NCBI GenBank assembly: GCA_016219965.1
Contig: JACRJM010000015.1
Coordinates: 31,857-95,856, forward strand
DNA length: 64,000 bases
Reading direction: 5' to 3'
From: Candidatus Schekmanbacteria bacterium
GTDB taxonomy: Bacteria > Schekmanbacteria > GWA2-38-11 > J061
Both the position numbers and the translations under genes were made by a program. Shown here one piece after another: positions 1 to 32,854 of this stretch (position 1 is its first letter; each line of letters starts with the position of its first letter). The notes below the pieces were generated by a model that made no database searches, was not told the DNA's origin, and was given only the letters and a program-made list of their open reading frames with translations.

Positions 1-271
1 GATGCTATGATGGATAGCGATAGTGTAACAAAAATTGAGATTATATAACTGGACGTTTCCTTCGATTTTGAATACCCGGATAAGGTTGTTATGCTAATTA
101 TTCCTATATTTTTTGCATTATTAATATCATTTCCAGTAGAAGGGATTATTTTTATAAAAAGGACAGACAAAAAAGCTGAAACTAAAAATAATATAATACA
201 CGTTGAAAGTAAGTTCCATTTTTTTTGATTAAATGTCATCCAGATTGATGTTGCTCTCCACGTTTATTTAG

Positions 272-2116
272 CTATAAACTGGGGAAAATTAATGGTTCTT
301 TATCTTCTATTGGTAAAATATTATTTTTGTGGCCTTCTGTAAATAATTTGGTTTGTGACTTTAAAAATTCAGTCATCTTTATTTCCTTTAATGAGAGATT
401 GAAGCTTTCACTTTGATCTTTCCTGAGATCATACAATTCATCACTTCCCGGTGAATTAAGGATATATTTCCATCTATCAACTCGTAATGCGATCGAACTT
501 ATATAGTAACGATAATCGTATTTTGTTAACAGATCATTTTTGGTAACCTGACTTAAAGTAAATTCCTTAGCGCTGTTTGGATCTGTATTATAGATTAAAG
601 ATAATAGAGATTCACCGCTAAAAAGTTTGTCGCTTTTAACATCAAGTAGTTCTAGAACAGTTGGCATTACATCAATGCTTTCCACACATTGATTTATGAT
701 TGCTGGTTTTTTTATCGTATCAGGGTTCCAAATTATAAGAGGTGTACGAATAACTTCTTCATACACTGTTCTTTCATGTCCCAGGAATCCATGCTCTCCA
801 AACGCCTCACCGTAAGGTGAAGTAATTACTACTATAGTGTTGTTTTTTATTCCTAGCAGTTCAAGCTTTTCAAATAATTCTTCTATCTGGCTGCTGACAT
901 AACTGATCTCACCATCATAAAGATTTACCAAACTCTGAATATCTTCTTTGCTTAGGTCCTTGGTTTCTTTTTTATCAGTATATCCTGTAATATTACTTTT
1001 GTTGCTGCTGACAAATTTACGAGTATAGGGTTCAGGTGCATCATATGGATAACTAGGGTCTACATAATTTATAAACAGAAAGAAATTGTATTCACCATAA
1101 CTATGTAGCCAATTGAAAACAACAGCATTTATTTCTGCTGCTTTTTTTCCTCCAGGAATTTCAATACTTGGAGGCAGCCCAAAAGATTCACTATAAAGTT
1201 TGTTTACGAGAGGGATGAGTATTTTATTAATTATTCTGATAGCGTTTTCCGTCCTTATAAAGCCAATGGAAGTGAAACAATTAAGAAAGCTAAGTTTGTT
1301 GATATAGGGGGTTATGAAAGGGGGAAAATTATCATTGTAAAAATCAAAACCTTTATTTAACTTGGAATTAGTATTTAGACAATTGTTACTAATGAAGGCT
1401 GCTGTCAAATATCCTTTTTCAGAAAGAGTATCTGCTAATGTTTTTTCTTCATCAGGAAGAGAATTAGCCCTAATATCAGGGCATTCAGGTGATCTTATAC
1501 CGTTTGGCGAGTTATTGACCTTATGTTCGAATGGATATTTTGAAGTGAATATTGATGCATAAGATGATAACGCATTTGAAGACTGAGAGACGCAGTTCTT
1601 AAACAAAATCCCGTTTTTTGCAACTGCATCAATGAAAGGAGCTGTTACTCTCGTATATCCATAACATTCCAGATTAGATGGTCTTAATGAGTCCACTGAT
1701 ATGATAATCAAATTTTTCTTTGTTTTCGTAACATTTTTTTGTGGAAAGAAGAATCGTTCACCAGGTATTGGTCCAGAAAAAACAAAAATTGATTCAGCTA
1801 CAACTATTGCAACCAGAGAAAGAAGGAGAAGTTTTGAAAAAAAATAATAAACATAAAATCTTTTTAAAGAAATAATTGGTTTTATGTTGAAAAATGGGAT
1901 AATTATGCTTGCAATAATTGAGACAATTGCACCACTTGCAAACCCAATAAGTATGTATAAAGCTGTAAGACTGGTTAAAAGCGGTTTGGAGTATTTTAAT
2001 ACTGATAAATTGCAATTCCAATCATAAAAAGCCATTATCATTGAAAAAATAATTATGGCCAATAAAATATTTAATGGTCTGGAAAATGTGAATCTGTCGT
2101 CTTTTTGACTAATCAT
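272..2116 (-). CDS. Membrane-anchored sulfatase-like protein (alkaline phosphatase superfamily, PF00884-like); 3-4 N-terminal TM helices
   Basis: Metal-ligand motif VDSLRPSNLECYGY and downstream ASIFTSKYP motif typical of the sulfatase fold. The canonical C/S-x-P-x-R nucleophile motif is replaced by SSNAL. Hydrophobic N-terminus. It is a paralog of the ORF at 27151-29055. Confidence 0.6.
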   Translation of the reverse strand: MISQKDDRFTFSRPLNILLAIIIFSMIMAFYDWNCNLSVLKYSKPLLTSLTALYILIGFASGAIVSIIASIIIPFFNIKPIISLKRFYVYYFFSKLLLLSLVAIVVAESIFVFSGPIPGERFFFPQKNVTKTKKNLIIISVDSLRPSNLECYGYTRVTAPFIDAVAKNGILFKNCVSQSSNALSSYASIFTSKYPFEHKVNNSPNGIRSPECPDIRANSLPDEEKTLADTLSEKGYLTAAFISNNCLNTNSKLNKGFDFYNDNFPPFITPYINKLSFLNCFTSIGFIRTENAIRIINKILIPLVNKLYSESFGLPPSIEIPGGKKAAEINAVVFNWLHSYGEYNFFLFINYVDPSYPYDAPEPYTRKFVSSNKSNITGYTDKKETKDLSKEDIQSLVNLYDGEISYVSSQIEELFEKLELLGIKNNTIVVITSPYGEAFGEHGFLGHERTVYEEVIRTPLIIWNPDTIKKPAIINQCVESIDVMPTVLELLDVKSDKLFSGESLLSLIYNTDPNSAKEFTLSQVTKNDLLTKYDYRYYISSIALRVDRWKYILNSPGSDELYDLRKDQSESFNLSLKEIKMTEFLKSQTKLFTEGHKNNILPIEDKEPLIFPSL

Positions 2117-2207
2117 GGGTTAAATAGTGTTTATTTTTTTATTAGTTTAATTTTCATTAAATTATAAATCAAAATGATTTCTTTTGAAAATAAATAAGGG
2201 GATATTT

Positions 2208-3923
2208 TTACCAAGAATCAATTTTATATATGTTCATCCTTAACCCTCTCTCGTCACCTGCTGTAGTTAACAGATGGACCTTAATATTTTCTATATCCAT
2301 TTTGCTTCTACGCCAAACTTGGTTCCTTATCAAAACTTCCTGTCCAACAATATATTCAATGCCTTCTCTCTTCATATATGTTACCATTATCCCGTTTTTA
2401 CATGCATCCAAAGCATCTTTATTTTGTACTCCGTCAAGATTTATGATTATATAGCCTTTACAGAAATAACCAATTATTCCTGATTCTAATACTCCTATTT
2501 TTGACCCTTGGGGGATATTTTTGTTAATCCATTCAGCTGTTTCGTAATAAAATAGAGGGAAGCTATGTGGTTTTGTGTATGTTTTTAACCCATAAAAATT
2601 ATCTAAGTTTTTTTCATATATAAAAAAATTCAAAAAGAAAATGTAGGTTAGAACAATGACTATTTTAACTATCTTTTTACTGACACCAATCAACGGTAGC
2701 AGTTTATCAAAGATAAGACTGAAAAAAAGTCCGGTATAAATGGCTGCTATTGCAGAAAAAGGGAAATAATATCTAGGATAGTGCCACATTCCAAAGACAT
2801 ACAAAGAATAATTTAGAATAAGAATAAAGGCGAAATAAAGTAGAAAATTCAGTTTCCCAGCTTTAACCAAAAACTCCGCAATCTCCTGTTTAATAGATGT
2901 CTTTTTCTTTAAATAGATAAGAACCGTTAAGATGATGAGAATTAAAAGTGAAATGACTTCAAGTAGTTCATAAGAATATCCGGATAATGTAGATAATTTC
3001 ATAACTAGTGTTCTTATGTAATTTATTGGATATATAAAAAATGCATACATTTTAAATATGGTCAATGAGCCAAGTATATGAATTAGATAGAATTGAACTG
3101 GAGGAGATTCTATAGGGAAAAAAACAGGTGGTGCAGTTGGAACGGAAAAATAAGGACGTATGCCGTTTAATAAGGATATTAGCCGTGCTGCCTGACTGCT
3201 TATTGGGACTATATCTCCCATTCTTATAAAATTAAATAACAACCAAGGAGTTATCATTAGTCCTGCAATAAAATATGGCAGTAAGTCGATTATTCTTTTC
3301 CTTTTTTTTAAAAAAATAAAATCTAGAAAAATTGCAATAGCAAGGAACATTCCATCGACTCTCGCAAGTCCCAAAATCCCAAGCAAAATTCCAAGAACAA
3401 GCAATTTCTTTGAACTTGTCTGCGGATTGTCTCTTATATTTTGTAAATAATAAAATGCACACAAAACAAAAAAGAAACAGGATATAGAAGTTTCAAGACC
3501 ATTCATTCCCATATTAATTACGGTCATTGAAAAACACCAAAGGAAAAGTGAGAAGATAGCAGGTCTGAATCCGACCACGCAATTCACTATTCTGTATATG
3601 AAATAACCGGCAAAAAGATTGAAGATACTGGTTATTGAAATTGCAATCGTAATTGGAGTGAACGGGTTATTACCAAAAAAATAAAATATTGGAGTTAAAA
3701 TCATTAAGTATAAAGGTTGTACACCATTTGTTGGATGTATTCCGTCGACACTTAGACCGATTCCATCAGCAACATTATTAGCGATTTTTAATGTATAAAA
3801 TGAGTCATCTATCATTATCCACCAGTTCATTAAAAACTCCGGACCCTTGCTTATGAGCCAGAATCTGAGAAAGAATCCTAATGCGATAATTAGGATGACT
3901 AATATTTGCTTTCGGTATTTCAC
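2208..3923 (-). CDS. Large polytopic membrane protein (10 or more TM helices) with a C-terminal soluble domain; putative GT-C-like glycosyltransferase or polymerase
   Basis: 571 aa, mostly hydrophobic helices, with a ~150-aa hydrophilic C-terminus. Sits 1 nt downstream of the next membrane-protein gene in the same operon. I see no recognisable catalytic motif. Confidence 0.35.
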   Translation of the reverse strand: MKYRKQILVILIIALGFFLRFWLISKGPEFLMNWWIMIDDSFYTLKIANNVADGIGLSVDGIHPTNGVQPLYLMILTPIFYFFGNNPFTPITIAISITSIFNLFAGYFIYRIVNCVVGFRPAIFSLFLWCFSMTVINMGMNGLETSISCFFFVLCAFYYLQNIRDNPQTSSKKLLVLGILLGILGLARVDGMFLAIAIFLDFIFLKKRKRIIDLLPYFIAGLMITPWLLFNFIRMGDIVPISSQAARLISLLNGIRPYFSVPTAPPVFFPIESPPVQFYLIHILGSLTIFKMYAFFIYPINYIRTLVMKLSTLSGYSYELLEVISLLILIILTVLIYLKKKTSIKQEIAEFLVKAGKLNFLLYFAFILILNYSLYVFGMWHYPRYYFPFSAIAAIYTGLFFSLIFDKLLPLIGVSKKIVKIVIVLTYIFFLNFFIYEKNLDNFYGLKTYTKPHSFPLFYYETAEWINKNIPQGSKIGVLESGIIGYFCKGYIIINLDGVQNKDALDACKNGIMVTYMKREGIEYIVGQEVLIRNQVWRRSKMDIENIKVHLLTTAGDERGLRMNIYKIDSW

Positions 3924-3924
3924 C

Positions 3925-5991
3925 TTATGATCTTCCCTTCAATTTTAATATTTTTGCTTTTCCAAAATCTTTTTCTATATTGTAATTTTTGTTAATAAAT
4001 TCAATCACATCTGGGACTCTTTTTTCAATAGGTATTGGTGCTTCCAAAGCATAATGATAGCTGTAAATAATAAACGCCGGTTTGTTTGCCTCAAGTTCAG
4101 AAAGTAGTTCTTTTCTCATATCAGAAGTTACTGCGTTAAATTCATTTATGAATCTAGTAGGATTAGACCTGTCGCAGAGGAAATAATAAACAGGTTCCCT
4201 TGGAAAAGCATATATATAATCAGTTTCTGAAGTATTGTCTCGAATATAATTTACTACGTTTCTTATATGCTCTGCCCATTCATCAGGTGCTTCTATCTTA
4301 TTAGCTCTTTCAATATTGATAGGTTCCATAATATTTGACTCTTTACTTAAATAATTTAGTGAAAACTTTTCTGATAGAGATGTAAAGAAAAACCTGGGTG
4401 CAACTCCTGGCCATATTATATAGCCAACAATTCCAGAGAGCAAAAAAAGTAAAAATAGGGAATATATAAAAAAAAGTGGAATTCTATTCCTGACTTTTTT
4501 TGAATTTATGATATTTTTAGCAAGCATTGTTGATTCTTTCATAGAAAGAGCCGCAAGAATCATTCCCGGAGGAAGACAAAAAAGATTCCTGTCGAGACCT
4601 GACATCCCAAAAGCTACTTTAAAGTATAAAATGCCAAAAAACAAAAGACCAAAAATTTTTATGTCTTTTTTTTCCCACATATGAAAAATAAATTTTTCTG
4701 ATAAAGTGATTAATAGAATTAAAAAGAAAATAATTGGCCAGTATACTGTTAAGGTTTTTAATAGTTCTTCACCTGTTTTGTAACTTGGAGAATTTAAGAA
4801 AACTGATACAGAGTTCTCGAAATTAGGGAATGGCCTTGAGAATAGTCCAATGCTGTAATATTTGGGGATATCTATCATATATCTGATGTAAAAGGACAAT
4901 GCACCAGTGACATAAAAAAAACTTAGGGAAGGTATTAGTGGAATCATAAGACCAAAAATGAATCGTGGGATTCTGATAAAGTTTTTACTTAGCATCAAAA
5001 CAAACATGCAAGATATAACAGCAATTATTCCTGCGTCATTGCTAAAAAGGAGAGAAATCCCCGCCATGACTCCTGCAAAAAGAATGTTTATCTTTTTCCC
5101 AGAATCGATATATTTGTAAATGAAAAGAAGCGAGGCTAGCCCTGATGCTGCTCTGAAAGTTGTATCGTGAATGGCTGGCAATACAGGGAAGTACATTATT
5201 ATAAAAATAGTCAAAGCTAAAATAGAATACCATTTGCTTTGGAAAATATTTCTAAAAAGGTAATATACAATTATAAAACCCAAAAAATAGAGGCAATAGC
5301 AGAATATTCTGAAAATAAGTATTGAAGGACCAAACAATTTTATGATTAACAAAAGGCTGTATGACATTAGCGGTCCATAAAAACTTAACGTGTCTTTGTA
5401 AAGAACCTTTCCCTTTGCAAGCTCATTTGCCCACGCATAATGCATACCCTCCTCACCGAAGAAGCCCCATGGTGCGAACCATGCTTTAAAAAAGAAATTT
5501 ATGTCGAAACTTAGAAAAAATATTACAACTGGTATAAGAAGATAATAAAAATAATCTTTTTGTATAATACTGGAACCCATTGGGGATAAGTTATCGTTTC
5601 TCATTGGTATATTTAACGTGATTATATCTGATGCATTTTTCTTTTTAGAAAGTAATAGAGCACAAATATAAGCAGATACTAATGCTATTGAGGCTGTTAT
5701 CAATAGCCCTGAAAAATAATAGAATGATTCCAAGTCCTTTGGATACGATGCGTTGACGGCACTGCTTATTATTCCCACCTTTTTGGCTTCTATCAATCCA
5801 GCACTTTCGATAGGGACAGTTTTAATTAGTAAATATGTTAATATAATCCCTACGGTAGCTCCGACAATTGTTGAGATTATTAGGTAGAATCTATTCTGTA
5901 TATTTCTTGCAGTATTACTAATTCTGTTGTGTCTCTCTGAAGCGTTTTTAAGCCAATCCCAAGTATTTAGGTTTTTAATGTTACATTTCAC
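3925..5991 (-). CDS. Large polytopic membrane protein with a C-terminal soluble domain; function unknown (GT-C-like?)
   Basis: 688 aa with many predicted TM segments and a ~170-aa hydrophilic C-terminal domain. Lies between the rSAM gene and the 571-aa membrane protein. Confidence 0.35.
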   Translation of the reverse strand: MKCNIKNLNTWDWLKNASERHNRISNTARNIQNRFYLIISTIVGATVGIILTYLLIKTVPIESAGLIEAKKVGIISSAVNASYPKDLESFYYFSGLLITASIALVSAYICALLLSKKKNASDIITLNIPMRNDNLSPMGSSIIQKDYFYYLLIPVVIFFLSFDINFFFKAWFAPWGFFGEEGMHYAWANELAKGKVLYKDTLSFYGPLMSYSLLLIIKLFGPSILIFRIFCYCLYFLGFIIVYYLFRNIFQSKWYSILALTIFIIMYFPVLPAIHDTTFRAASGLASLLFIYKYIDSGKKINILFAGVMAGISLLFSNDAGIIAVISCMFVLMLSKNFIRIPRFIFGLMIPLIPSLSFFYVTGALSFYIRYMIDIPKYYSIGLFSRPFPNFENSVSVFLNSPSYKTGEELLKTLTVYWPIIFFLILLITLSEKFIFHMWEKKDIKIFGLLFFGILYFKVAFGMSGLDRNLFCLPPGMILAALSMKESTMLAKNIINSKKVRNRIPLFFIYSLFLLFLLSGIVGYIIWPGVAPRFFFTSLSEKFSLNYLSKESNIMEPINIERANKIEAPDEWAEHIRNVVNYIRDNTSETDYIYAFPREPVYYFLCDRSNPTRFINEFNAVTSDMRKELLSELEANKPAFIIYSYHYALEAPIPIEKRVPDVIEFINKNYNIEKDFGKAKILKLKGRS

Positions 5992-6028
5992 TTTACTGCT
6001 ACCTTTTGATTTTCAGGTATGGGATATC

Positions 6029-7402
6029 TCAGTGTTTTATTTTAAAAATATTAAAATCGCTTATTCGTTGTAAAATAAATTTCAACTGTGAAAGCTTGAA
6101 AAATTTTAGCAACGTCAGCATTTGACGCGGTCTGAAGAAGAAACTTCTAAAGGCTTTTGAAGAAGCATTCTGAAGTGTTTTGCTGCTTAAACCTTCAGGG
6201 ATCCATGTCACATCCTGATAACTTCTATAGGATGAAGGAGAGAGATTAGTACTTGCTCCGAGCTTATGAAAAAGTTCTGATCCTGGGAGAAGATCTAAGA
6301 GAAGAAATTGAGCCCTATCGAGAGGAATCTTTTTTGCAAATCTTATAGTTTCGTTTATAGTTTCTTCAGTTTCTCCTGGAAGTCCAAAAATGAAGAACCC
6401 CTGAGTTATAATACCTGCTTTCTTGGATTCTCTTATAGCATATTCAATAATTTCCAAATTTGTTTTTTTATGAATATTATCCAGGATTCTCTGATTCCCG
6501 GATTCAATTCCGAATGCTAAATAATAGCATCCGCTTTCTTTCATAAGTGATAATAATTCAGGCGTAACTGTTTCAACACGAATACCATTAGGGGTAGCCC
6601 AAGATATTTTAAGATTGCGAGCAATAATTTCTTGGCATATTTGTTCTACGTGGCTTTTCTTAAGGGTCAGGTTGTCATCTTCAAAATGAATTTCCTTAAC
6701 TCCGAATTCTTTTACAAGTAACTCTATTTCATCAACTACATTTTTAGGAGATCTGAATCTTATCTTTTGCTTCCATATAAAAGGGCTCGCACAGAATGAA
6801 CATGCAAAAGGGCAACCACGTGATGAAATGATTGGTGCAACTGGAAAGTTTTTTATTAGTCCTCCATGCGGAGCCTTCTCATAAGACTTGGGGTTCATCT
6901 GTTCCCAATCAGGCAATGGGAGGGAATCAATATCTTTTATAAATTCTCGATCTTTTATATTCCCGTTATTAAGTTTGTAAACACCTTTAATATCTCTAGG
7001 AGCTTTAGTTCCTGATGATAGATGATTTGCAAGGTCGAGCATAGATTCTTCTCCCTCGCCGACTACTGCAAAATCAGCTCCGCTTTCTTCCAGAGATTTC
7101 TTTGGTACTGCTGTAACGTGTGGACCACCAATAACGGTAATTATATCTTTTTTTTTACAGCGCCCTATTAAATCACATACTTCAGGATAATAGTCGGTTA
7201 GCACACTGATTCCAACTAATTCACAACCGTATTCCTGGCATATATCTGCAATTTTCTCATTTGAAAGGGCATAGTTTAGTCCATCTAACAATTTTGTTTC
7301 ATTAAATCCATGTTTTTTCAGATATGCTGAAATGTACCCCAATCCCAATGGCGGAGTAATTAAATGAGTGTGATAAGATGGTCTCGCTAAAACTATTTTC
7401 AT
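6029..7402 (-). CDS. B12-binding (class B) radical SAM protein
   Basis: N-terminal cobalamin-binding-like Rossmann region (VIGGPHV, VVGEGEE), then radical SAM Cys triad GCPFACSFC. Shows IW-K-R-RS and ETEET motifs shared with the paralog at 39680-41191. Its start overlaps the upstream oxidoreductase by 4 nt (ATGA). Confidence 0.8.
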   Translation of the reverse strand: MKIVLARPSYHTHLITPPLGLGYISAYLKKHGFNETKLLDGLNYALSNEKIADICQEYGCELVGISVLTDYYPEVCDLIGRCKKKDIITVIGGPHVTAVPKKSLEESGADFAVVGEGEESMLDLANHLSSGTKAPRDIKGVYKLNNGNIKDREFIKDIDSLPLPDWEQMNPKSYEKAPHGGLIKNFPVAPIISSRGCPFACSFCASPFIWKQKIRFRSPKNVVDEIELLVKEFGVKEIHFEDDNLTLKKSHVEQICQEIIARNLKISWATPNGIRVETVTPELLSLMKESGCYYLAFGIESGNQRILDNIHKKTNLEIIEYAIRESKKAGIITQGFFIFGLPGETEETINETIRFAKKIPLDRAQFLLLDLLPGSELFHKLGASTNLSPSSYRSYQDVTWIPEGLSSKTLQNASSKAFRSFFFRPRQMLTLLKFFKLSQLKFILQRISDFNIFKIKH

Positions 7403-8847
7403 TCTAAGCTTTCTATTTTGGCCTGCCTTGCATCATGCTCAAAAATTTCCTCGTCACTTGCAATCCTTAAAATCTCAGTTTTGGGGAGACCAAATAGTAT
7501 ATGTTCTGCGGCAAGAAGACCCATCTCGATGGAATGATCCATATTATTATATCTAAAGAGCCCCTGTCTGCCGCAACAGATTAGGTTCTCGAATGAATTT
7601 ATAAATGGTATGGCTGCTCGAAGATGGTCCTTGTAATCAAGTCTATAAATAGGATAAGCGTGCTCTGTCTTAGTAATAAAATATTCTATGGTATTTTCTT
7701 TTATATCTTTGAATCCTATTTTTGAAAGATCATTTATACATCTTTCATAAATAGCTTTTTTATCTGCATTCCATATTTTATCTCCAATATTACATGCTAT
7801 CTCAAGTATTAGAGAAGTTTTATGAGCAGGTGAACTGTGTGGACTCCAGTTTTTAGGTTCCTGTATACGCATAAATAGATATTCCGATTCAGGTATATAT
7901 ATCCATGTATTGTCAGAAACAATTTCCTTATCAAGAAGTATATTGAGAAATATTAGCGCCCTGAAGGTCATCTTCTTTGAGACTTGAATGAGATGATCTG
8001 GGGCGGGGGGATCAAGCTTTTGTATAAATTCAGGTAGTGGGATTGTTGATATTATAAAGTCTGCTGAAATTTCTTTTTCCTCGTTATCTGAGAAAATAAT
8101 TACGCTAGTAATTTTGTTTCCATTTCGTTTTATTTTTTTTACATTATAAGAGAGAAAAAAATCTCCTTTATTTTCACTTACTATTTCTGCCATTCTTTCA
8201 GGAATTCTACCAATCCCTTTCTCAGGGTAGTAAAATTTTGTTGCATAAGTTTTAGGTGCATTCTTTTTCTTGCCTAAAAGTCTTTTAAATACATCCCAGA
8301 GATTTAGAAGGGAAATTCTTTGGGCTGCCCAATCAGAAGATATTAGAGTTGGTTTTACTCCCCATAGTTTCTCTGAATAAGGACCAAAGTATATGTTGTA
8401 GAGGGATCTTCCAAACCTGTTAACGACCCAATCTTCAAATGAAACATCTTTTTTGTTTAAAAGCTTTCTTGATATGGTTGCTACTATATAATCAAAAAAA
8501 CATTTTATTGAAACAGACAATTTAAGTTTTGTTACGAGATCTTTTGCTTCTAGAGGATAAGAAAAATATTTGCCTTGAAGTCTTATAGTGCTTTTTCTAT
8601 CACGCGTTATTACTTCATCAGACATCAAATTATAAATTTCTTTTGCAAGCTCTACATTTTGAGTTATAAATCTGTGTCCACCAAGATCAAAATGATATTC
8701 TCCATGCCTTATCGTTTGGCAAAGACCTCCGACCTGCGCTTCTTTTTCAACAAAAATTACATGATTGTTTGCTATGGACAGTTTCCACCCTGCGCTTAAT
8801 CCACAAGGCCCAGCTCCAAGTATCAATATTTTTCTTTTTTCGTCCAT
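7399..8847 (-). CDS. FAD/NAD(P)-binding oxidoreductase (amine-oxidase / UDP-galactopyranose-mutase-like Rossmann fold)
   Basis: N-terminal dinucleotide-binding motif ILILGAGPCGLSAG, then VEKE-GG and DLGGHRF, typical of the FAD-dependent amine oxidase/UGM superfamily. First gene of the minus-strand operon. Confidence 0.6.
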   Translation of the reverse strand: MDEKRKILILGAGPCGLSAGWKLSIANNHVIFVEKEAQVGGLCQTIRHGEYHFDLGGHRFITQNVELAKEIYNLMSDEVITRDRKSTIRLQGKYFSYPLEAKDLVTKLKLSVSIKCFFDYIVATISRKLLNKKDVSFEDWVVNRFGRSLYNIYFGPYSEKLWGVKPTLISSDWAAQRISLLNLWDVFKRLLGKKKNAPKTYATKFYYPEKGIGRIPERMAEIVSENKGDFFLSYNVKKIKRNGNKITSVIIFSDNEEKEISADFIISTIPLPEFIQKLDPPAPDHLIQVSKKMTFRALIFLNILLDKEIVSDNTWIYIPESEYLFMRIQEPKNWSPHSSPAHKTSLILEIACNIGDKIWNADKKAIYERCINDLSKIGFKDIKENTIEYFITKTEHAYPIYRLDYKDHLRAAIPFINSFENLICCGRQGLFRYNNMDHSIEMGLLAAEHILFGLPKTEILRIASDEEIFEHDARQAKIESLE

Positions 8848-8905
8848 TATCTTTGTTTGAAATTTTTATTCACTAATCGGGTATGATAACGTACTTTTTA
8901 AATAA

Positions 8906-8938
8906 TATGTGAAACATCTAAGTCATATGTTTGATATA
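8906..8938. promoter_or_regulatory. Inverted repeat TATGTGAAACAT-N7-ATGTTTGATATA (10/12 arms) in a divergent promoter region; candidate operator
   Basis: Read directly from the sequence. Lies 60-90 nt upstream of the minus-strand oxidoreductase start codon. Confidence 0.25.
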
Positions 8939-9181
8939 TTTTTTAATCCTTAAAAATGTTCTGTTATACGTACTATTCTCAATGTAATTTTTTAACTTAT
9001 ACAATAGTAGGTAAATCCTCAAGCTTAATTTACACTTAATATAGAACCTGATTTTAAGAAAACATTGTTTTGGATAAAGTGCTATTTGACAATTATAGGT
9101 AAGAACGTCGAACTTTTATACATTATAACTTGTTGATAATCTATAGTATTTTATAACTTGAACATATTTGTAGCAAAAAAG

Positions 9182-9198
9182 TGTCGGAATTTTAGACA
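9182..9198 (+). promoter_or_regulatory. Palindrome TGTC-N9-GACA followed by a long A/T tract (9200-9235); candidate enhancer (UAS) plus bend site for the sigma-54 promoter downstream
   Basis: TGTCGGAATTTTAGACA sits ~85-100 bp upstream of the -24 element. It is followed by T10-A8-T10, typical of intrinsically bent or IHF-type DNA between UAS and sigma-54 promoters. Confidence 0.3.
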
Positions 9199-9281
9199 GT
9201 TTTTTTTTAAAAAAAATTTTTTTTTGAAAACGCAATATTTTTCCTTTGATAAATCAATATGTTAATTATACTAATGGGAAT

Positions 9282-9296
9282 TGGCACAAATGTTGC
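9282..9296 (+). promoter_or_regulatory. Sigma-54 (RpoN) -24/-12 promoter, TGGCAC-N5-TTGC
   Basis: TGGCACAAATGTTGC gives exact GG-N10-GC spacing and 9/9 of the core consensus, 43 nt upstream of the ATG at 9339. Two sigma-54 activators (PrsR and an NtrC-like protein) are encoded in the window. Confidence 0.55.
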
Positions 9297-9338
9297 TTTA
9301 TTTTTATATACTGTGTGATTTAATATTAAAAAAAGTAT

Positions 9339-11324
9339 ATGAAATCAAATTATAAAACCTCTATCGAGTTTTGGAAAGATTTCTTAGAAAATTTATCTGA
9401 GATACATGGAATATTTTTGCAGTTAATTGGTAAGAATGGGGTTTCTTATTCTAAGTCATTTAATCAGCGGACAATATGTTCCTATCTGAAAAGATTCAAT
9501 AAAACTGTAGATGAATGTTCCAAATCCTGCCATGATCTTATACTAAAATGCATAGAAGAACGTGAAGTAAAGAGAATATCTTGCTACATGGGAGTAGAAT
9601 ACTTTGCAGTTCCAGTATTACTAGACAACGGTGAAATTGCCGCTGTTGCTGGAGGTAAAGTATTAACAACAATTCCCTATAGAGAGTCTTATGCTGAACT
9701 CTGTGAGAGATATGGCTTAGATTTAGATGAGGTATTAAATTCGATAAATGAGCTTAAGTTTATGAAAGATTCTGCAATAGATTCATATATTAAGATGATT
9801 GAAAAGTTCGGTAATAGTTCTGCTTCTGCTTTTTCAGATTTGAGAGAGCTTAAACGTAGTGAATATATTTTTAAGAAAAGTTTTGATGCTATGGAGGAAA
9901 TTTGTTCTTCTATTGGCTCATTAGAAAAATTTTATTTTGCCATCCTGAACTTTATTACAACTAATTTTAATATAAAAGATGCATCGCTATTAGTGATTAA
10001 TGAAAATCGATATGAAACAGTAGCGGACATAAGAGATTTTAAAAGCAAAGGCATATTTTCCCAGGTTAGTATATCTTCTACCTCTCATCTTATTGATCAA
10101 TTAAAGAACAGAGAAACTGGATATCTGGTAGTAACTGATCCCAGTAAGCTTGAGGAATTTGGTATTAAGTGGGGTACTCAATCACTTTCTATTTTCCCGG
10201 TTATAACTGGAAGCGGTATGTGGGGAATGATTCTTGTTTTTGATTTTATTTCGAATAATGAGCAAATGGATGATATTTCAAAGTTCTGTGTTAATTTGAA
10301 ACAAGGAATTGAAAACTTTTTAATTAAGGAAAAAATAGAAAGTATAGGACAGCAAAAAGTTGTATTTAAAAAAATTGTTGAAGATTTAAAAAAATATAAT
10401 GATGTTAATGAACTGTTAATAACAGTTGCTAACAAAATTGGCTGGTATTTTAATGCTCAAAGAGTTTCAATTGCGATTGTTGATGAAGAAGCTGGCAGGC
10501 TTGAGTTAAAGGCTGTGCGTGGAATAGATAAAAATATCATCAATAATGTTAAATACCTTGCTGAAAACAGCATCAGTAATCATGTTTTTAAATCTGGCAC
10601 TCCCATTTTTGTTAGAGATATAATGAATGATGAGAAATTTTCTAAAATGGCTCATCTTGGCTGTAATGGACGTGCTTTTGCAAGTGTTCCGTTAAGAAAT
10701 AATGGGACATCGCTTGGTGTTGTAAATTTGAGTGATATCACAGATCAGTCGAATTTGGATGAAGAGTATTTTGAGGCACTAGAGGATTTAATAAAGGTGG
10801 CGGCACTGATAATAGAGAAAGCTATTTGCAAGAAAGAATTAGGAAGTATAAACCTTAAATATGTCGATGAAACCACCGGTATTTATAACAAAAAATATTT
10901 TACTGAGTATGCAAAAAATACCATAGAAAATTCAAAAAGATATAACCGTAATACTTCTATTGTGCTATTAGATTTTGGCGAAGGGAATGGTATAAATGAA
11001 ATTAATGTAGAGGATAAGATGAGAACCACTGTAAATGATGCCAGAAAACTTATAAGACGCTCAGATATAATGGCTGCTTATGATAAAAACAAATTTGCTT
11101 TTTTATTGCCAGATACTGAAAAGGATGGAGCTCTTATTTTTGCAAGAAAGATTCAGGCGAAAGTTCATGATTTGATATTGCTTTCAGATAAAATTGGCGA
11201 AATAAAAGTTAAGGTTGGTGTAAGTACATTCCCAGATGATGGTGATACGTTGGGTGAATTGACATTTATTGCAAAGAATGCCCTTGGTGGTTCAGATAAT
11301 CCTTCATCTAGTTTCATAGAATAA
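9339..11324 (+). CDS. Multidomain regulator: Cys-containing N-terminal sensory region, two GAF domains, degenerate GGDEF (diguanylate-cyclase-like) domain
   Basis: GAF-like blocks at ~aa 190-500. C-terminal GGDEF fold carries DFGEG in place of GGDEF/GGEEF, so it is probably catalytically inactive. First gene after the sigma-54 promoter. Confidence 0.5.
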   Translation: MKSNYKTSIEFWKDFLENLSEIHGIFLQLIGKNGVSYSKSFNQRTICSYLKRFNKTVDECSKSCHDLILKCIEEREVKRISCYMGVEYFAVPVLLDNGEIAAVAGGKVLTTIPYRESYAELCERYGLDLDEVLNSINELKFMKDSAIDSYIKMIEKFGNSSASAFSDLRELKRSEYIFKKSFDAMEEICSSIGSLEKFYFAILNFITTNFNIKDASLLVINENRYETVADIRDFKSKGIFSQVSISSTSHLIDQLKNRETGYLVVTDPSKLEEFGIKWGTQSLSIFPVITGSGMWGMILVFDFISNNEQMDDISKFCVNLKQGIENFLIKEKIESIGQQKVVFKKIVEDLKKYNDVNELLITVANKIGWYFNAQRVSIAIVDEEAGRLELKAVRGIDKNIINNVKYLAENSISNHVFKSGTPIFVRDIMNDEKFSKMAHLGCNGRAFASVPLRNNGTSLGVVNLSDITDQSNLDEEYFEALEDLIKVAALIIEKAICKKELGSINLKYVDETTGIYNKKYFTEYAKNTIENSKRYNRNTSIVLLDFGEGNGINEINVEDKMRTTVNDARKLIRRSDIMAAYDKNKFAFLLPDTEKDGALIFARKIQAKVHDLILLSDKIGEIKVKVGVSTFPDDGDTLGELTFIAKNALGGSDNPSSSFIE

Positions 11325-11518
11325 CCTGTAAAAACGGTTTTGTAGAATTTTATTTCCAAATTATTCCATATTCAATCTTTTAACCTTCTGCTTTAAAATT
11401 CAACTAATTAGCTTGACTACATTCTTTTATATATTAAGATTCAATCATTGAAAATGTACATATTAATGAGCTGATATTTTTTCACGATATGAGTTACACC
11501 TCTAATTGGAGGAATTAG

Positions 11519-12337
11519 ATGAATTATTATAAAAAAGTTATGTTTATTTTATTATTTTTTTGTTTGTCTATAGTAGGTGTTTTGCGTGCATCAGACGAAT
11601 ATATAATTGGAGAAGAAGATATTATTGAAATATCAGTTTGGAAGAATCCCGAATTAAGTAAAGTTGTTGTTGTGAGACCTGATGGAATGATTTCATTGCC
11701 ACTTATAGATGATATCCAGGCTAAAGGCATGACAGCGCTTCAATTGAGAGATAAGCTAATTGAAAAACTAACAAAATTTATTGAAGTCCCTGATATTACA
11801 GTCACTCTTAGAGAAATCAACTCATATAAAGTCTATGTTATATATAACGGTCAAGGTCAATCTGGGGAATTTACTCTTAAACGAAATGTAAATCTTCTTC
11901 AGTTTTTCGCGAAAATCGGTGGTATTAAAGATATTGATTTGAAACAGTCTTATATTCTTCGTGATAATAAAAAAATTGATGTGGATATGAACAAACTTAT
12001 TGATGATAATGATTTGGCACAAAACATAGAATTAAAGCCAAATGATACATTTTTTTTTCAGGATAAATTTTCTTCTCGAATCACTGTAATAGGGCAGGTA
12101 CAGAAACCTGGTATTGTTAGCTACAGGAAAGGACTTACTTTGGTTGATGTTATATTGGAAAGTGGAGGAGTTACTGATTTTGCACGCTCTTCTGGTACAA
12201 AAGTAATTAGGAAGGCTGATGGGGAAGAAAAAATAATTAAAGTCGATATGGCTGATATATTGGAAGATGGAGAAATAGATAAAAATATTCCTGTAGAGCC
12301 TGGTGATACTGTGATTGTGCCAAAAGGATTCCTGTGA
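11519..12337 (+). CDS. Polysaccharide export protein, Wza/EpsA-like (Poly_export + SLBB), periplasmic/outer membrane
   Basis: Signal peptide, then ISVWKNPELS...VRPDGMISLPLIDDIQAKGMTALQL, typical of the polysaccharide biosynthesis/export family. Strong RBS GGAGG precedes the ATG. Confidence 0.75.
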   Translation: MNYYKKVMFILLFFCLSIVGVLRASDEYIIGEEDIIEISVWKNPELSKVVVVRPDGMISLPLIDDIQAKGMTALQLRDKLIEKLTKFIEVPDITVTLREINSYKVYVIYNGQGQSGEFTLKRNVNLLQFFAKIGGIKDIDLKQSYILRDNKKIDVDMNKLIDDNDLAQNIELKPNDTFFFQDKFSSRITVIGQVQKPGIVSYRKGLTLVDVILESGGVTDFARSSGTKVIRKADGEEKIIKVDMADILEDGEIDKNIPVEPGDTVIVPKGFL

Positions 12338-16018: not shown

Positions 16019-16486
16019 TTGAGCAAAATTCTGTTTATTGATGATGACGAAACCATGAGAGAAGCGGTTTCTAGAGCTATTGGAACTATGGGACATATCT
16101 GTGAGACTGCTGCAGATGGGTTTGAAGGATTAAAAAAAATTAAAGAGGAAAATTATGATCTTGTTATAACAGATATGCGTATGCCAAAACTGGATGGAAA
16201 GGAGTTTACAAAAAGAGCTATTCAATTTGACAAAGGAATATTAGTAATAGTTCTGACTGGTTATGGCTCAGTTGAATCGGCAGTTGAACTACTGAAACTT
16301 GGGGCATATGATTATTTAGAAAAACCCTTGAATTTCGAAGATCTCGAATTTGTAATTAATAGAGCCCTTGAAAAGAAAAAGATGGAAGGACAATTGAGTT
16401 TTTTTAAGGGAATGATATATACACTGATAATATCAATTCCTATCTGGCTTATACTTGGCATAATACTTGCTGCTTTTTTATCTTAA
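16019..16486 (+). CDS. Single-domain response regulator (CheY-like receiver) with a C-terminal transmembrane helix
   Basis: Receiver motifs DDDETMRE, DLVITDMRMP and VLTGYG. Last ~25 aa are hydrophobic (LIISIPIWLILGIILAAFL). TTG start preceded by an AAGGAG RBS. Confidence 0.6.
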   Translation: MSKILFIDDDETMREAVSRAIGTMGHICETAADGFEGLKKIKEENYDLVITDMRMPKLDGKEFTKRAIQFDKGILVIVLTGYGSVESAVELLKLGAYDYLEKPLNFEDLEFVINRALEKKKMEGQLSFFKGMIYTLIISIPIWLILGIILAAFLS

Positions 16487-20323: not shown

Positions 20324-22018
20324 ATGTATCGATTAAAAAAAATTAGAGAAATAATGAGTAACAGAAAAAAAGAAATTATTCTTCTTTGTTTGATAATGGT
20401 TGTTGGATTTATTTTAAGGGTATGGAATATCTATCATAATTTGCCTTTTCTTCCAGATCCAGATGAACAGATGAATGTAAACAGAGCAGTTGCTTTTGGT
20501 AGTGGTGATTTAAATCCTCATAATTTTAAACATCCAGCAACCCATCAATATATTCTCTTTATACTCTTTGGGATATATTATTGCATTTCTTATGCAGTTG
20601 GAGCTATTTCATCAGTACATGACTTTGAATTAGAGTTTATTTCAGATCCAACAAATTTTTATTTAATTGCAAGACTTTTTATTGTTTTATTAGGAACTAC
20701 AACTCTTTTTTTGATTTATGTTATAGGGAAGGAAAACTATGGAAGTTCAACTGGTTTAATATCATCAATTCTTCTATCAGTTTCTGTTGCGCATGCAACA
20801 TATTTCATTCCCAAAGGAGAAATTCCAACTACTTTTTTTATATGTTTTTCATTTATATATATATTAAGAGTTTGCAAAGAAGGAAAAATAGAAAACTATA
20901 TTAAAGCCGGCATGTTATCCGGATTAGCTCTAGGTACAAAATATTATAGTGGTTTGTTAATAATTCCATTAATTGCAAGTCATTATTTTTATGTCTCTAA
21001 TACTAAATCTCGCATTTTAGATAAAAAAATATTCATAAGCACGTCTGTTATGGGTTTAACTTTCGTTATAACTAATCCATACGTTATTATAGATTATCAT
21101 ACATTTTACGAACATTTTATTTATCAGCTTAAATGGCCATCAATATATAGTGATACTCTTATTGGTTTTGGTGCTGGCCATATATTTTATTTAAAAAATA
21201 TATTTTCTTTTAGCTTAGGTTTGATATTAGGAATTATTTGCTTTATAGGAGTTATATTTGCTTCTTATATACATTCCAAGACTGATATTATTATTTTGTT
21301 ATTTATAATACCATTTTATTTTTTGTTGGGATTAACAAATTTACCATATTATAGATATTTAATTCCTATCATTCCTCTTGTTGTTTTGTTGGGTGCAAGG
21401 ACTGTAAATGTGTGTTTTCAGTCTTATCTGCAGGGTTTAAATTACAATATTAAATGTATTTGTGTTGTTGCAGTTTTAATCATTTCACCTTCATATAACT
21501 TGATAGAGTACAAAATTAAAACGAGCAAAAAAGATGTTAGAATTGCTGCAAAGGAGTGGATTGAAACAAATATCCCTGAAAATTCGAGAATATTGCTTTC
21601 AGGAAATAATGTTTCTATGACTAAGGCTGCACCTTTAGAAGATAGTCTAAACAGTTTAGAAGAAAAGAAAATAGAAAACAGAAATAGCGGAATTTGGGGA
21701 ATAAGCCTGAAAGGGTTGGAAAAATATTATAAACTTAAAATTGAGGCTAATAAATTGGGCTTAATTAAAAGTAAAAAGTATTATTTAACTTCTACTAAAA
21801 GTGGATTTAATGTTGAACCTATTGAGTACTATAAATTAAAAAAATATGATTATTTTGTATTGTCTGATGAAATAGAAGTCCCTTCATGGAGTCTGAAAAA
21901 AAAGAAAATGTATCCGAACGTAGTTAGCTTTTATAATTCACTTACATCAACATCTGTTTTACTGAAAGCTTTTGAGGACCAGGGAAGAATTATAAAAATA
22001 TATAAGTTAAAACAATAA
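20324..22018 (+). CDS. Glycosyltransferase family 39 / ArnT-like (PMT_2) polytopic membrane glycosyltransferase
   Basis: N-terminal region LRVWNIYHNLPFLPDPDEQMNVNRAV...FKHPATHQY fits the dolichyl-phosphate-mannose-protein mannosyltransferase-like family. Many TM helices. Confidence 0.5.
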   Translation: MYRLKKIREIMSNRKKEIILLCLIMVVGFILRVWNIYHNLPFLPDPDEQMNVNRAVAFGSGDLNPHNFKHPATHQYILFILFGIYYCISYAVGAISSVHDFELEFISDPTNFYLIARLFIVLLGTTTLFLIYVIGKENYGSSTGLISSILLSVSVAHATYFIPKGEIPTTFFICFSFIYILRVCKEGKIENYIKAGMLSGLALGTKYYSGLLIIPLIASHYFYVSNTKSRILDKKIFISTSVMGLTFVITNPYVIIDYHTFYEHFIYQLKWPSIYSDTLIGFGAGHIFYLKNIFSFSLGLILGIICFIGVIFASYIHSKTDIIILLFIIPFYFLLGLTNLPYYRYLIPIIPLVVLLGARTVNVCFQSYLQGLNYNIKCICVVAVLIISPSYNLIEYKIKTSKKDVRIAAKEWIETNIPENSRILLSGNNVSMTKAAPLEDSLNSLEEKKIENRNSGIWGISLKGLEKYYKLKIEANKLGLIKSKKYYLTSTKSGFNVEPIEYYKLKKYDYFVLSDEIEVPSWSLKKKKMYPNVVSFYNSLTSTSVLLKAFEDQGRIIKIYKLKQ

Positions 22019-31627: not shown

Positions 31628-32854
31628 ATGGCAATTAAAGTTGCTTATATTGTTGCAAGGTTCCCATCTGTGTCTCAGACATTCATACTTAGAGAGATTT
31701 TGGAATTATGTAATCAAGGTTTTGACATAACGATATTTCCTCTAAAATCTAAGCCAGACAAGCTTACTCACAATGATGCAAAAAAGGTCTTAAATAAAGT
31801 TTATAGTATTTCACCATTTTCAATAAAAGTACTAATGTCTCAAATTTATTTTTTTCTTACCTCACCTTTGAAGTATTTTTATTTGATATATTTTGTCGTA
31901 AAAAATAATTTAAGAAATCCTTATGCGTTAACTATATCACTTGGATTAATTCCAAAATCTGTGCATATTGCACTCATGATTAAACGTCAGAAAATATGCC
32001 ATATCCATGCGCATATGGCTACATTTCAAGCATCATGTGCATTGTTTATATCTGTTCTAACTGGTGTTCCTTTTTCTTTTACTGCACACGCCACTGACAT
32101 TAGAGGAGATCAAGCTGATAGGACTCATGATGGGACAAATATGCTACAGGAAAAATTAGAAAGAGCAAAATTTATTGTTACATGTACAGATGATAATGTG
32201 ATTTATTTGAGAAATAAACACAGAGATATTGCGCCAGAAAAAATTATACTAAACTATCATGGGATAGATACTGATAAATTTTCTCCAAAAAAATGTGAAG
32301 AACAGCCTCCTCTTATATTGGCTGTTGGAAGATTATTAGAATGTAAAGGTTTTGAGTATCTAATAGATGCTTGCAAAATTCTTAGAGAGAAGAATTTGAG
32401 TTTCAAGTGTATGATTGTAGGGGATGGGCCTGATAAAGGTATACTGAAGAAAAGAATTGATAATTCTGACTTGGGAAATATTGTTGAATTAGCTGGCGCA
32501 AAATCGCAGGAGGAATTGATAGAATTGTATAATAAAGCTTCTCTTTTTGTTTTGCCGTCCATTTCTGAAAGTCACTTTGGGATACCCAATACTCTTTTTG
32601 AGGCAATGTCAATGACAGTTCCGGTTATTGTTTCAAATCTTCCAGCTGTTAAAGAGCTTATAGTTTCACGGGATGAGGGTATCGTAATCCCTGAAAAAAA
32701 TGTTTATATTTTGGTTAAGGAAATTGAACAGCTTTTGAGAGATAGTCAGTTAAGGAAAATGATTGGGAAAAATGCTAGAAAAAAGATTATAGAAAACTTC
32801 AGCGTTAAAGAGAAAGTTAAAGAATTAAGATATATTTTTGAAAATAAAATATGA
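31628..32854 (+). CDS. Glycosyltransferase family 4
   Basis: C-terminal ESHFGIPNTLFEAMSMTVPVIVSNL GT4 motif; N-terminal GT-B domain. Confidence 0.75.
   Translation: MAIKVAYIVARFPSVSQTFILREILELCNQGFDITIFPLKSKPDKLTHNDAKKVLNKVYSISPFSIKVLMSQIYFFLTSPLKYFYLIYFVVKNNLRNPYALTISLGLIPKSVHIALMIKRQKICHIHAHMATFQASCALFISVLTGVPFSFTAHATDIRGDQADRTHDGTNMLQEKLERAKFIVTCTDDNVIYLRNKHRDIAPEKIILNYHGIDTDKFSPKKCEEQPPLILAVGRLLECKGFEYLIDACKILREKNLSFKCMIVGDGPDKGILKKRIDNSDLGNIVELAGAKSQEELIELYNKASLFVLPSISESHFGIPNTLFEAMSMTVPVIVSNLPAVKELIVSRDEGIVIPEKNVYILVKEIEQLLRDSQLRKMIGKNARKKIIENFSVKEKVKELRYIFENKI

Follow-up and report, generated by a model that had tools for sequence, protein, structure and literature searches.

A Candidatus Schekmanbacteria operon joining a UGM-like flavoprotein and a class-B radical SAM enzyme to GT-C-fold membrane proteins: a candidate system for extracytoplasmic glycosylation

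Here we describe a minus-strand operon in a 64,000-nt stretch (hereafter the window; GC about 32%) of contig JACRJM010000015.1, from a metagenome-assembled genome of Candidatus Schekmanbacteria. From its 5' end, the operon encodes a flavoprotein resembling UDP-galactopyranose mutase (UGM), a class-B radical S-adenosylmethionine enzyme (rSAM), two large polytopic membrane proteins that we call gtcB and gtcA, and a membrane-anchored protein of the alkaline phosphatase (AP) fold (Table 1). We consider it somewhat better than an even bet that these genes serve extracytoplasmic glycosylation with a lipid-linked donor, on the same principle as the Gtr, Arn and three-component systems, and that the mutase and the rSAM would add sugar tailoring to it. 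A preliminary description of the locus had proposed a module for decorating an envelope glycoconjugate; the gene set fits that proposal and occurs together again in a clearly divergent genome, L172.

The two membrane proteins, which had been called GT-C-like, each contain 9–10 hydrophobic segments by sequence prediction. Their AlphaFold2 models (gtcA, pLDDT 87.4 and pTM 0.89; gtcB, pLDDT 90.6 and pTM 0.91, with about 13 helices in the membrane part) were compared with the PDB using Foldseek, and every match at E<=1e-3 was a GT-C enzyme. For gtcA this was the case for 24 of 24 matches (AglB, STT3, ALG9/12, ArnT, PglB, Pmt4 and AftA), and AftB and AftD appeared at weaker E-values. For gtcB, all 11 matches were of this kind, with ArnT at the top (6e-6) followed by STT3, DPY19, EmbB, PglB and ALG6. 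Transporters, an unrelated family to which such proteins could have belonged, were listed only at non-significant scores (E>0.04, probability <0.2). As modelled, gtcA and gtcB are thus GT-C-fold glycosyltransferases and not transporters. Because the fold matches reach TM-scores of only 0.4–0.5 and are spread evenly over oligosaccharyltransferase (OST), ArnT, ALG, Aft and Pmt enzymes, the class of acceptor is unreadable from the fold.

Both proteins carry conserved acidic motifs. In gtcA, D39-D40 directly follows the first transmembrane helix (TM1) and is invariant in 17 homologues; in gtcB, E180-E181-G182 follows a transmembrane (TM) helix and is nearly invariant, E180-E181 being present in at least 90% of 50 homologues. 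In the models these motifs would lie in an extracytoplasmic loop, as expected of GT-C enzymes. The two proteins are distant paralogues (hhalign probability 91%, E 1e-6) and have a small C-terminal alpha/beta domain in common. The PMT_2 score of gtcB is just under the Pfam gathering threshold (25.8 against 26.1 bits). Its family, which comprises 1653 representatives at E<=1e-3 in an exhaustive HMMER search (used instead of a word-indexed search, which returned only 2 matches for this hydrophobic protein), has no Pfam model of its own and touches PMT_2 weakly in 11 of 50 members. A direct scan of gtcA gave no Pfam match at E<=0.01, and precomputed annotation lists PMT_2 (PF13231) for its relatives. 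The public annotation of gtcA (HZA77_13565) is a 540-aa protein without TM1, whose start is apparently 31 codons late. A GTG start at 3923, giving 571 aa, restores TM1, and its use is supported by homologues that align from residue 1 and by the confident placement of TM1 in the model. Exact-sequence look-ups of the 571-aa protein and of the 540-aa database form found no match.

The preliminary description treated the operon as a unit of five genes. All five minus-strand open reading frames (ORFs) were recovered as described: genes 1 and 2 overlap by 4 nt, and the next three junctions leave 37, 1 and 91 nt. The divergent region put at about 490 bp measures 491 bp. The operon itself is longer, with at least seven genes by comparison with a related contig, of which the window holds the first six. 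The sixth ORF begins at position 239 (minus strand), 32 nt past the AP-fold gene, and leaves the window at its left edge. Its frame starts MTFNQKKW..., which is the N-terminus of a 657-aa protein in L086, a contig of a 95%-identical strain (window position 1 corresponds to L086 position 17404). This protein is a paralogue of the 688-aa gtcB (29% identical, E 3e-83), and in L086 it is followed by a 265-aa glycosyltransferase of family 2 (GT2) and then by a convergent gene for a tetratricopeptide-repeat (TPR) protein. The ratio of nonsynonymous to synonymous substitution rates (dN/dS) against the same strain contig ranges from 0.05 (the flavoprotein) to 0.18 (the AP-fold protein) across the five genes, indicating purifying selection. 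The intergenic gaps contain no terminator-like site in a scan that returned 7 sites against 4.8 expected, all 7 intragenic, and that is uninformative at these numbers.

The GT2 gene lies 3' of the gtcB paralogue both in L086 and in L172, where its product has 244 aa. Its best matches among NCBIfam models are PgfS (top) and ArnC (second), with AglJ, PpgS and the Dol-P-hexose transferase, all below their cutoffs, which points to the polyprenyl-phosphate sugar synthase class. The presence of this class of enzyme at the end of the operon in both genomes indirectly suggests that the GT-C proteins would use a polyprenyl-phosphate-linked donor. Elsewhere in the window there is no orthologue of this small GT2, only generic GT2 similarity at 32851-33987. 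The convergent TPR protein (about 635-655 aa) stands beside the operon in L086 (19900-21374) and L172 (18222-20135) and is also found in L004 (6705-8606), a locus of a close gtcA relative. The L172 and L004 copies are 61% identical and have 7 predicted TM segments, and a weakly similar protein in L002 has 11. In the L172 protein a WDDE motif directly follows TM1, and the protein is likely a GT-C of the TMTC/PMT_2 type.

The flavoprotein had been called UGM-like, which its full-length matches and conserved catalytic residues bear out. It matches the Pfam families Amino_oxidase and NAD_binding_8, and GLF weakly (22.1 bits against a cutoff of 26.3). Among curated models it exceeds the cutoff of NF005547 ('PRK07208.1-3', named only 'hypothetical protein'; 401.8 bits, cutoff 380) and falls below that of TIGR00031 (Glf; 46.3 bits, cutoff 303.75). 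Its best solved relatives, matched over the full length, are the UGMs of A. fumigatus (4u8l, E 5e-31) and T. cruzi (E 2.5e-26), and it is about 25-30% identical to these long UGMs. With the long 'eukaryotic-type' UGMs (3ute, 4u8l, 4dsg) it has in common the FAD-binding GxGxxG motif, the GGH histidine loop and a set of Arg and Tyr residues. Conservation of at least 95% across 22 family members from rSAM-linked loci extends to G56-G57-H58, R177, W315, Y317, R327, Y398, R427, Y433, N434/435 and D437-H438; the Arg and Tyr among these correspond to residues that bind the UDP diphosphate and the sugar in the A. fumigatus enzyme. Because the protein scores below the curated Glf cutoffs, we term it a UGM-like mutase candidate and not a canonical Glf; it would be a nucleotide-sugar pyranose-to-furanose mutase of the PRK07208 group. 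It differs from the long UGMs in belonging to this uncharacterised group and in its genetic coupling to an rSAM, which to our knowledge has not been reported for any UGM. Our literature searches on PRK07208 and on UGM with radical SAM found nothing relevant.

The rSAM combines an N-terminal B12-binding domain (PF02310, 68.9 bits) with a Radical_SAM domain (PF04055, 96.9 bits) and an invariant CxxxCxxC core (C197-x3-C201-x2-C204), which agrees with its initial assignment to class B, the cobalamin-binding class. Class-B enzymes that act on sugars or glycolipids include GenK/GenD1 and MoeK5 (sugar C-methylation), HpnJ (ring contraction of hopanoid-linked glucosamine) and OxsB (ring contraction), and the rSAM has the same N-terminal cobalamin-binding domain and CxxxCxxC core. 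Judged by profile scores it is in no named subfamily: BchE (195.7 bits against a cutoff of 481.35) and HpnJ (185.7 against 577.6) are the best two NCBIfam matches, and all named subfamilies compared (BchE, HpnJ, PhpK, ladderane rSAM, HpnR and GenK-like) are below their equivalog cutoffs. A search for homologues returned 2761 sequences at E<=1e-30, the top 120 of which are 53-67% identical over the full length and come from several phyla, so by sequence the protein belongs to a large, unnamed and highly conserved orthologue group. A hopanoid route through HpnJ had been considered and dropped in the preliminary description, and we reach the same conclusion: there are no hopanoid genes or hopanoid context, and HpnJ scores far under its cutoff (in round figures, 186 bits against 578). 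Long rSAM ORFs in L105, L132 and L159 that looked like FAD-rSAM fusions are artefacts of open-ended ORF calling. Searches of the literature on rSAM with GT39, and on rSAM with GT-C and polyprenyl, found nothing relevant. Matches in the PDB are to generic class-B enzymes only, namely AprD4, TsrM, OxsB, TokK and QCMT (9CCB; PMC12931638).

In L172, the full unit is present beside the same PocR-GGDEF and XrtA export genes. The XrtA export genes and the divergent PocR-GGDEF gene are followed there by genes for a TylF-type methyltransferase, the flavoprotein, the rSAM, a second (PRK07233-type) flavoprotein, gtcB, the AP-fold protein, gtcA, the gtcB paralogue and the GT2, and then by the convergent TPR-GT-C. 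Identities are 72% for the flavoprotein, 67% for the rSAM, 60% for the GT2, 44% for the 657-aa paralogue, 42% for gtcA, 41% for the AP-fold protein and 35% for gtcB. Two genes of L172 are additional to those of the window: the TylF/Methyltransf_24-type methyltransferase (4933-5616) and the second flavoprotein (8697-10001), which scores above the cutoff of NF005560 ('PRK07233') and is inserted between the rSAM and gtcB; they hint at further tailoring steps. Recurrence of the unit in other genomes thus stands for L172 and the close strains, but it is not broad. None of 80 distant gtcA relatives (<=34% identity, species-representative genomes) was accompanied within +-10 kb by even one of the other four, and the five-gene unit was absent around 80 rSAM orthologues. 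Gene neighbourhoods suggest that the operon is better regarded as a combination of two sub-modules, each distributed more widely on its own: the flavoprotein with the rSAM, and the two GT-C proteins with the AP-fold protein and the GT2.

The wider distribution of the second sub-module is visible in the loci of close gtcA relatives (L001-L004, 43-62% identical). In all four, gtcA is accompanied by an AP-fold gene. Both gtcB and a small GT2 (about 244 aa) are additionally present in L002-L004; L001 lacks these two and has a 316-aa GT2 instead. In L001, which holds the closest gtcA homologue outside the strains, this GT2 and a YdjC-family protein (2780-4619) adjoin the gtcA homologue, a pairing that recalls, by analogy, glycosyl transfer followed by deacetylation in HpnI/HpnK, there without an rSAM. 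The first sub-module was followed in a survey of 80 metagenomic rSAM loci at 46-59% identity, plus others; the stretch of L173, only 2.8 kb, is too short to inform on its neighbourhood. No gene neighbours the rSAM more often than that of the flavoprotein, which 31 of 82 loci contain; of the 25 loci flanked by 3 kb or more on each side, 13 contain it. The two genes are nearly always next to each other and in the same direction, in either order, separated by -14 to +77 nt. Seven non-redundant loci have a DPM1-like GT2 immediately 5' of the rSAM, and three of the seven have a PMT_2+TPR GT-C ahead of that GT2. Other neighbours include PMT_2, YfhO, EpsG-like, STT3 and GT4 proteins, epimerases and further rSAMs, and an Omnitrophota locus has the rSAM-flavoprotein pair amid genes for STT3, PMT_2, GT2, an NTP-transferase, a GHMP kinase and an epimerase.

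The same surveys hold the observations that weigh against our reading. The rSAM is absent from all four of L001-L004, and in L002 a flavoprotein homologue lies about 9 kb off; because the GT-C pair occurs there without the rSAM, the rSAM/flavoprotein cassette is an add-on that is not required. The flavoprotein is missing from about half of the rSAM loci that have these longer flanks, and some loci (L088, L095) are dominated by further rSAM genes and have no sugar-nucleotide genes. Large polytopic proteins are no denser close to the rSAM than farther out (10.4% of ORFs within 6 kb against 11.0% at 6-10 kb, p=0.87), so we dropped as evidence the finding that 76% of loci have a polytopic neighbour, and the link between rSAM and GT-C rests on specific operon arrangements. 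In addition, the operon contains no ORF for a GtrA- or MATE-type flippase, and all homologues come from uncultured organisms. In L088 (6504-21362) and L095, which are contigs of Deltaproteobacteria type, the rSAM orthologue sits in a different conserved cluster without the flavoprotein. This cluster comprises DUF2079 (798 aa), YdjM, two more B12-rSAMs, two non-B12 rSAMs and membrane proteins of about 640 and 1065 aa, the larger with a faint GT-C_AftD match.

The main rival explanation, which we consider rather unlikely, draws on these observations. It holds that two unrelated modules abut, a flavoprotein/rSAM pair with a non-sugar role, in isoprenoid or other lipid metabolism, having been captured 5' of a self-sufficient GT-C/GT2 operon. 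The GT-C/AP-fold/GT2 set without rSAM in L001-L004, the rSAM orthologues without GT-C neighbours and the lack of local polytopic enrichment are what it would predict. Enzymes that act on lipids (HpnJ, HpnR and 'ladderane') are among the named families closest to the rSAM, and the flavoprotein weakly matches isoprenoid desaturase models of the CrtI/HpnE type. However, the match to a carotenoid desaturase (about 3e-6) covers the N-terminal dinucleotide-binding motif only, whereas UGMs are the best matches over the full length and their Arg/Tyr set is conserved family-wide. Moreover, the cassette is translationally coupled through its 4-nt overlap and lies 37 nt from gtcB with no terminator between, the fusion of the two modules is kept in L172 at 35-72% protein identity, and a GT2 of the polyprenyl-phosphate sugar synthase type is found directly 5' of the rSAM in the seven other loci. 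A more specific form of the glycosylation proposal, which we advance tentatively as a minority possibility, takes the flavoprotein and rSAM to be a so far undescribed cassette of two enzymes, widespread in Schekmanbacteria, Omnitrophota, Thermodesulfobacteriota and further uncultured lineages. Its product would be a non-canonical donor, for example a C-alkylated or rearranged hexofuranose, formed at the nucleotide-sugar or polyprenyl-phosphate stage; the GT-C proteins would deliver it and the dead AP-fold protein would be their dedicated subunit. Extracytoplasmic glycosylation would then have a further, new route to diversity.

The last complete gene of the operon in the window had been described as a membrane-anchored sulfatase-fold protein whose formylglycine motif is altered to SSNAL. 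Its fold, anchor and motif are as described: the protein matches Pfam Sulfatase and SGSH_C after three hydrophobic segments, and arylsulfatases are its top matches in the PDB and in NCBIfam. A link to sulfate chemistry did not emerge. In alignment with 4upi/4uph, Ala182 takes the formylglycine position within SSNALSSY and Tyr186 the Arg/His position (A182-L-S-S-Y186 against C/S-x-P-x-R); the first metal-binding Asp, D142, is kept, and the metal-binding Asp-His pair is replaced by Pro434-Tyr435. Orthologues in L004 (50% identical) and L002 have an intact site, S-P-W-T-[LV]-P-S-H...T-S-x-x-P-x-x-H-G and T-S-D-H-G-E, with Thr at the nucleophile position and His or Leu (T-x-P-S-H / T-x-P-S-L) where sulfatases have Arg. 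A Thr motif with S-D-H-G is typical of phosphodiesterase and phosphotransferase members of the alkaline phosphatase superfamily (NPP, LtaS, EptA-like), to which these sequences would belong. The window encodes a second protein of the family, a membrane-anchored paralogue of 634 aa in the plus-strand XrtA exopolysaccharide (EPS) operon (27151-29055), which keeps PWTLPS, with the Thr nucleophile, and SDHG, so that one apparently active and one degenerate copy stand in the same window. Over this paralogue and the L004 and L002 orthologues, the conserved motifs read Thr-x-P-S-[HY] and S-D-H-G.

That the protein is a genuine formylglycine sulfatase acting on a sulfated glycan is effectively excluded on this evidence: its Pfam, PDB and NCBIfam matches would fit, but the C/S-x-P-x-R motif and the Asp-His ligands are lost, and even the intact orthologues have Thr in place of Cys or Ser and His or Leu in place of Arg. 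There is also no gene for a formylglycine-generating enzyme (FGE) or an anaerobic sulfatase-maturating enzyme (anSME). An anSME-type maturase role for the rSAM was rejected, since it is of class B and not of the SPASM type, and the AP-fold protein has no Cys or Ser to mature. As the protein has no link to sulfate chemistry, a search for sulfated sugars is not motivated.

The copies in the window, L086 and L172 are all degenerate, with an incomplete set of Thr nucleophile and metal ligands. The L172 orthologue is degenerate at the same positions with other residues (T to L, DH to SS), and the dN/dS of 0.18 is close to the values of the neighbouring genes; for these reasons we regard the protein as an old, retained pseudoenzyme, neither a sulfatase nor a decaying gene. 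A functional precedent is YejM/PbgA, a degenerate membrane-anchored AP-fold envelope factor related to EptA and LtaS, and by this analogy the protein is most likely a non-catalytic accessory subunit with a binding or scaffolding role. Like YejM/PbgA/LapC, it is a membrane-anchored AP-fold protein without the typical catalytic features, and it matches the YejM model of NCBIfam weakly (E 1.5e-7). It differs in not being a family-level homologue (30 bits against a cutoff of 825), in the number of N-terminal helices and in its partners, which are GT-C genes here whereas YejM takes part in LpxC regulation.

Returning to glycosylation with a lipid-linked donor, we infer the following order of steps, topology and chemistry. 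In the cytoplasm, the flavoprotein would contract a sugar ring to the furanose form and the rSAM would perform a radical step on the sugar, such as C-methylation or rearrangement, with either the nucleotide sugar or the lipid-linked sugar as its substrate. The GT2 would load the tailored sugar onto polyprenyl phosphate. After flipping of the lipid-linked sugar, the three paralogous GT-C enzymes would pass it to an envelope acceptor on the periplasmic side, where the fourth, convergent TPR-bearing GT-C may also join in the transfer. The AP-fold protein would act as a non-catalytic binding or scaffolding subunit in the manner of YejM/PbgA. Candidate acceptors are XrtA-dependent EPS, PEP-CTERM proteins and lipopolysaccharide (LPS).

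Two alternatives name the acceptor. PMT_2-like GT-C proteins, including the TMTC-like TPR protein, could modify Ser/Thr-rich, exosortase-sorted PEP-CTERM proteins and not an exopolysaccharide. This protein O-glycosylation, which we judge improbable, would explain why PMT_2 is nearest in sequence to the GT-C proteins, why the convergent TPR-GT-C is built like TMTC-type protein O-mannosyltransferases and why an XrtA/PEP-CTERM locus adjoins the operon in three related genomes; the top match of the GT2, PgfS, also comes from a protein-glycosylation system. However, the spread of GT-C fold matches over acceptor classes gives it no preference, XrtA genes are missing from the contigs of the close relatives L001-L004, and the operon includes no gene for a PEP-CTERM substrate.

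The second alternative is a kit for LPS or lipid A modification like ArnC/ArnT with EptA, in which the GT-C proteins add a sugar to lipid A or core and the AP-fold protein is an EptA/YejM-like partner. The operon does resemble the Arn/EptA genes in uniting a GT2 for a polyprenyl-phosphate sugar, GT-C proteins and a membrane-anchored 'sulfatase'-fold protein. Structurally, gtcB matches ArnT best, the GT2 has ArnC in second place among its NCBIfam matches, and the EptA, MCR and YejM models match the AP-fold protein weakly. Nevertheless, we regard such a kit as quite improbable. The GT2 and AP-fold scores are far under the family cutoffs, ArnA/B/D-like genes are absent from the operon, and the AP-fold protein is degenerate, nearer to the arylsulfatase/PehA type than to EptA and preceded by 3 and not 5 hydrophobic segments. 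Three to four GT-C paralogues also exceed what a single substitution of lipid A needs.

Known three-component systems include GtrA/GtrB/GtrC, responsible for O-antigen glucosylation, CsbB/GtcA/YfhO and the pentofuranose systems of Kelly et al. (PNAS 2024, PMC11127046). In systems of this type, a cytoplasmic enzyme charges polyprenyl phosphate, a GT-C enzyme transfers the sugar outside the cytoplasm and optional auxiliaries diversify it; the auxiliaries described are epimerases, and UGM-like or B12-rSAM enzymes are not mentioned in that paper. The operon resembles them in the synthase class of its GT2, just past the window in L086 and L172, and in its GT-C folds. It differs in having no flippase gene, three to four GT-C paralogues and not one, a UGM-like flavoenzyme and a B12-rSAM as auxiliaries and, in addition, a degenerate AP-fold membrane protein.

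The region between the operon and the divergent PocR-GAF-GGDEF gene had been proposed as a control region for both sides. The divergent arrangement is real and recurs in L086, L087 and L172, the GGDEF protein of the last being 41% identical, but the sole strong promoter-like element faces the GGDEF gene, not the operon. It is a perfect sigma-54 -24/-12 consensus (TGGCACAAATGTTGCT) at 9282-9297 (+), 42 nt 5' of the GGDEF start. Another site, with one mismatch, lies at 16456-16471 (+) just 5' of the XrtA-type priming glycosyltransferase at 16501; with 26 matches at <=2 mismatches in the whole window against 22.6 expected, only the exact site stands out. The window scan found no sigma-54 site serving the minus-strand operon. 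A scan for sigma-70-like sites gave 40 against 43 expected, which is no excess over chance and uninformative. In an Rfam scan of positions 1-12000 at E<=1, neither a cobalamin riboswitch nor any other credible family turned up. The window also contains genes for two sigma-54 activators (38198-39559 and 45519-46889).

None of the five genes matches the PEP-CTERM-associated NCBIfam/TIGRFAM models that the plus-strand neighbours match, as expected from the initial view that they lie outside the XrtA core. The plus-strand XrtA EPS operon has its own PMT_2 GT-C of 564 aa (20324-22018, +). The exosortase (EpsH) ORF (34610-35449, +) and the DUF3485/EpsI-family ORF after it (35251-36075, +) have about 200 nt in common in the mechanical ORF calls; the TTG start assigned to the latter is probably too far upstream. 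The window also encodes a second class-B (B12-binding) rSAM of 503 aa (39680-41191, +), below all named subfamily cutoffs, immediately 3' of a PrsK/PrsR-like kinase and sigma-54 regulator pair and ahead of a 939-aa TPR protein.

Table 1. Features of the operon and of the divergent region in the window
Feature	Positions	Strand	Basis
Gene 1, flavoprotein, 482 aa, long-form UGM homologue	7399-8847	-	ORF and profile matches
Gene 2, class-B rSAM, 457 aa	6029-7402	-	ORF and B12-binding/Radical_SAM
Gene 3, gtcB, 688 aa, GT-C fold	3925-5991	-	ORF and AlphaFold2/Foldseek
Gene 4, gtcA, 571 aa, GT-C fold	2208-3923	-	ORF and AlphaFold2/Foldseek
Gene 5, AP-fold ('sulfatase'-fold) protein, 614 aa, membrane-anchored	272-2116	-	ORF and Sulfatase/SGSH_C
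Gene 6, first 79 codons of third GT-C (gtcB paralogue), cut by window edge	1-239	-	Match to L086
Divergent intergenic region, 491 bp	8848-9338	.	With sigma-54 site
PocR-GAF-GGDEF diguanylate cyclase	9339-11324	+	Domain/family calls; XrtA/PEP-CTERM EPS export genes downstream

The combination of rSAM, mutase and GT-C proteins with a pseudoenzyme subunit is undescribed in the literature that we found and is most likely a variant of the GT-C systems with lipid-linked donors. For genome annotation, 'sulfatase' labels are misleading in such loci, which encode a Thr-nucleophile family and, in this operon type, a conserved pseudoenzyme. Because the evidence is computational and the carriers are uncultured, the practical impact will be modest until the sugar or the acceptor is identified. 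GT-C systems with lipid-linked donors are nevertheless a main source of surface-glycan diversity, and if the cassette is wired into one of them, radical chemistry would join a sugar-diversifying toolbox that so far consists of epimerases. If this is true, the operon would also provide the first functional handle on a large orphan group of class-B rSAMs and on the 'PRK07208' flavoproteins.

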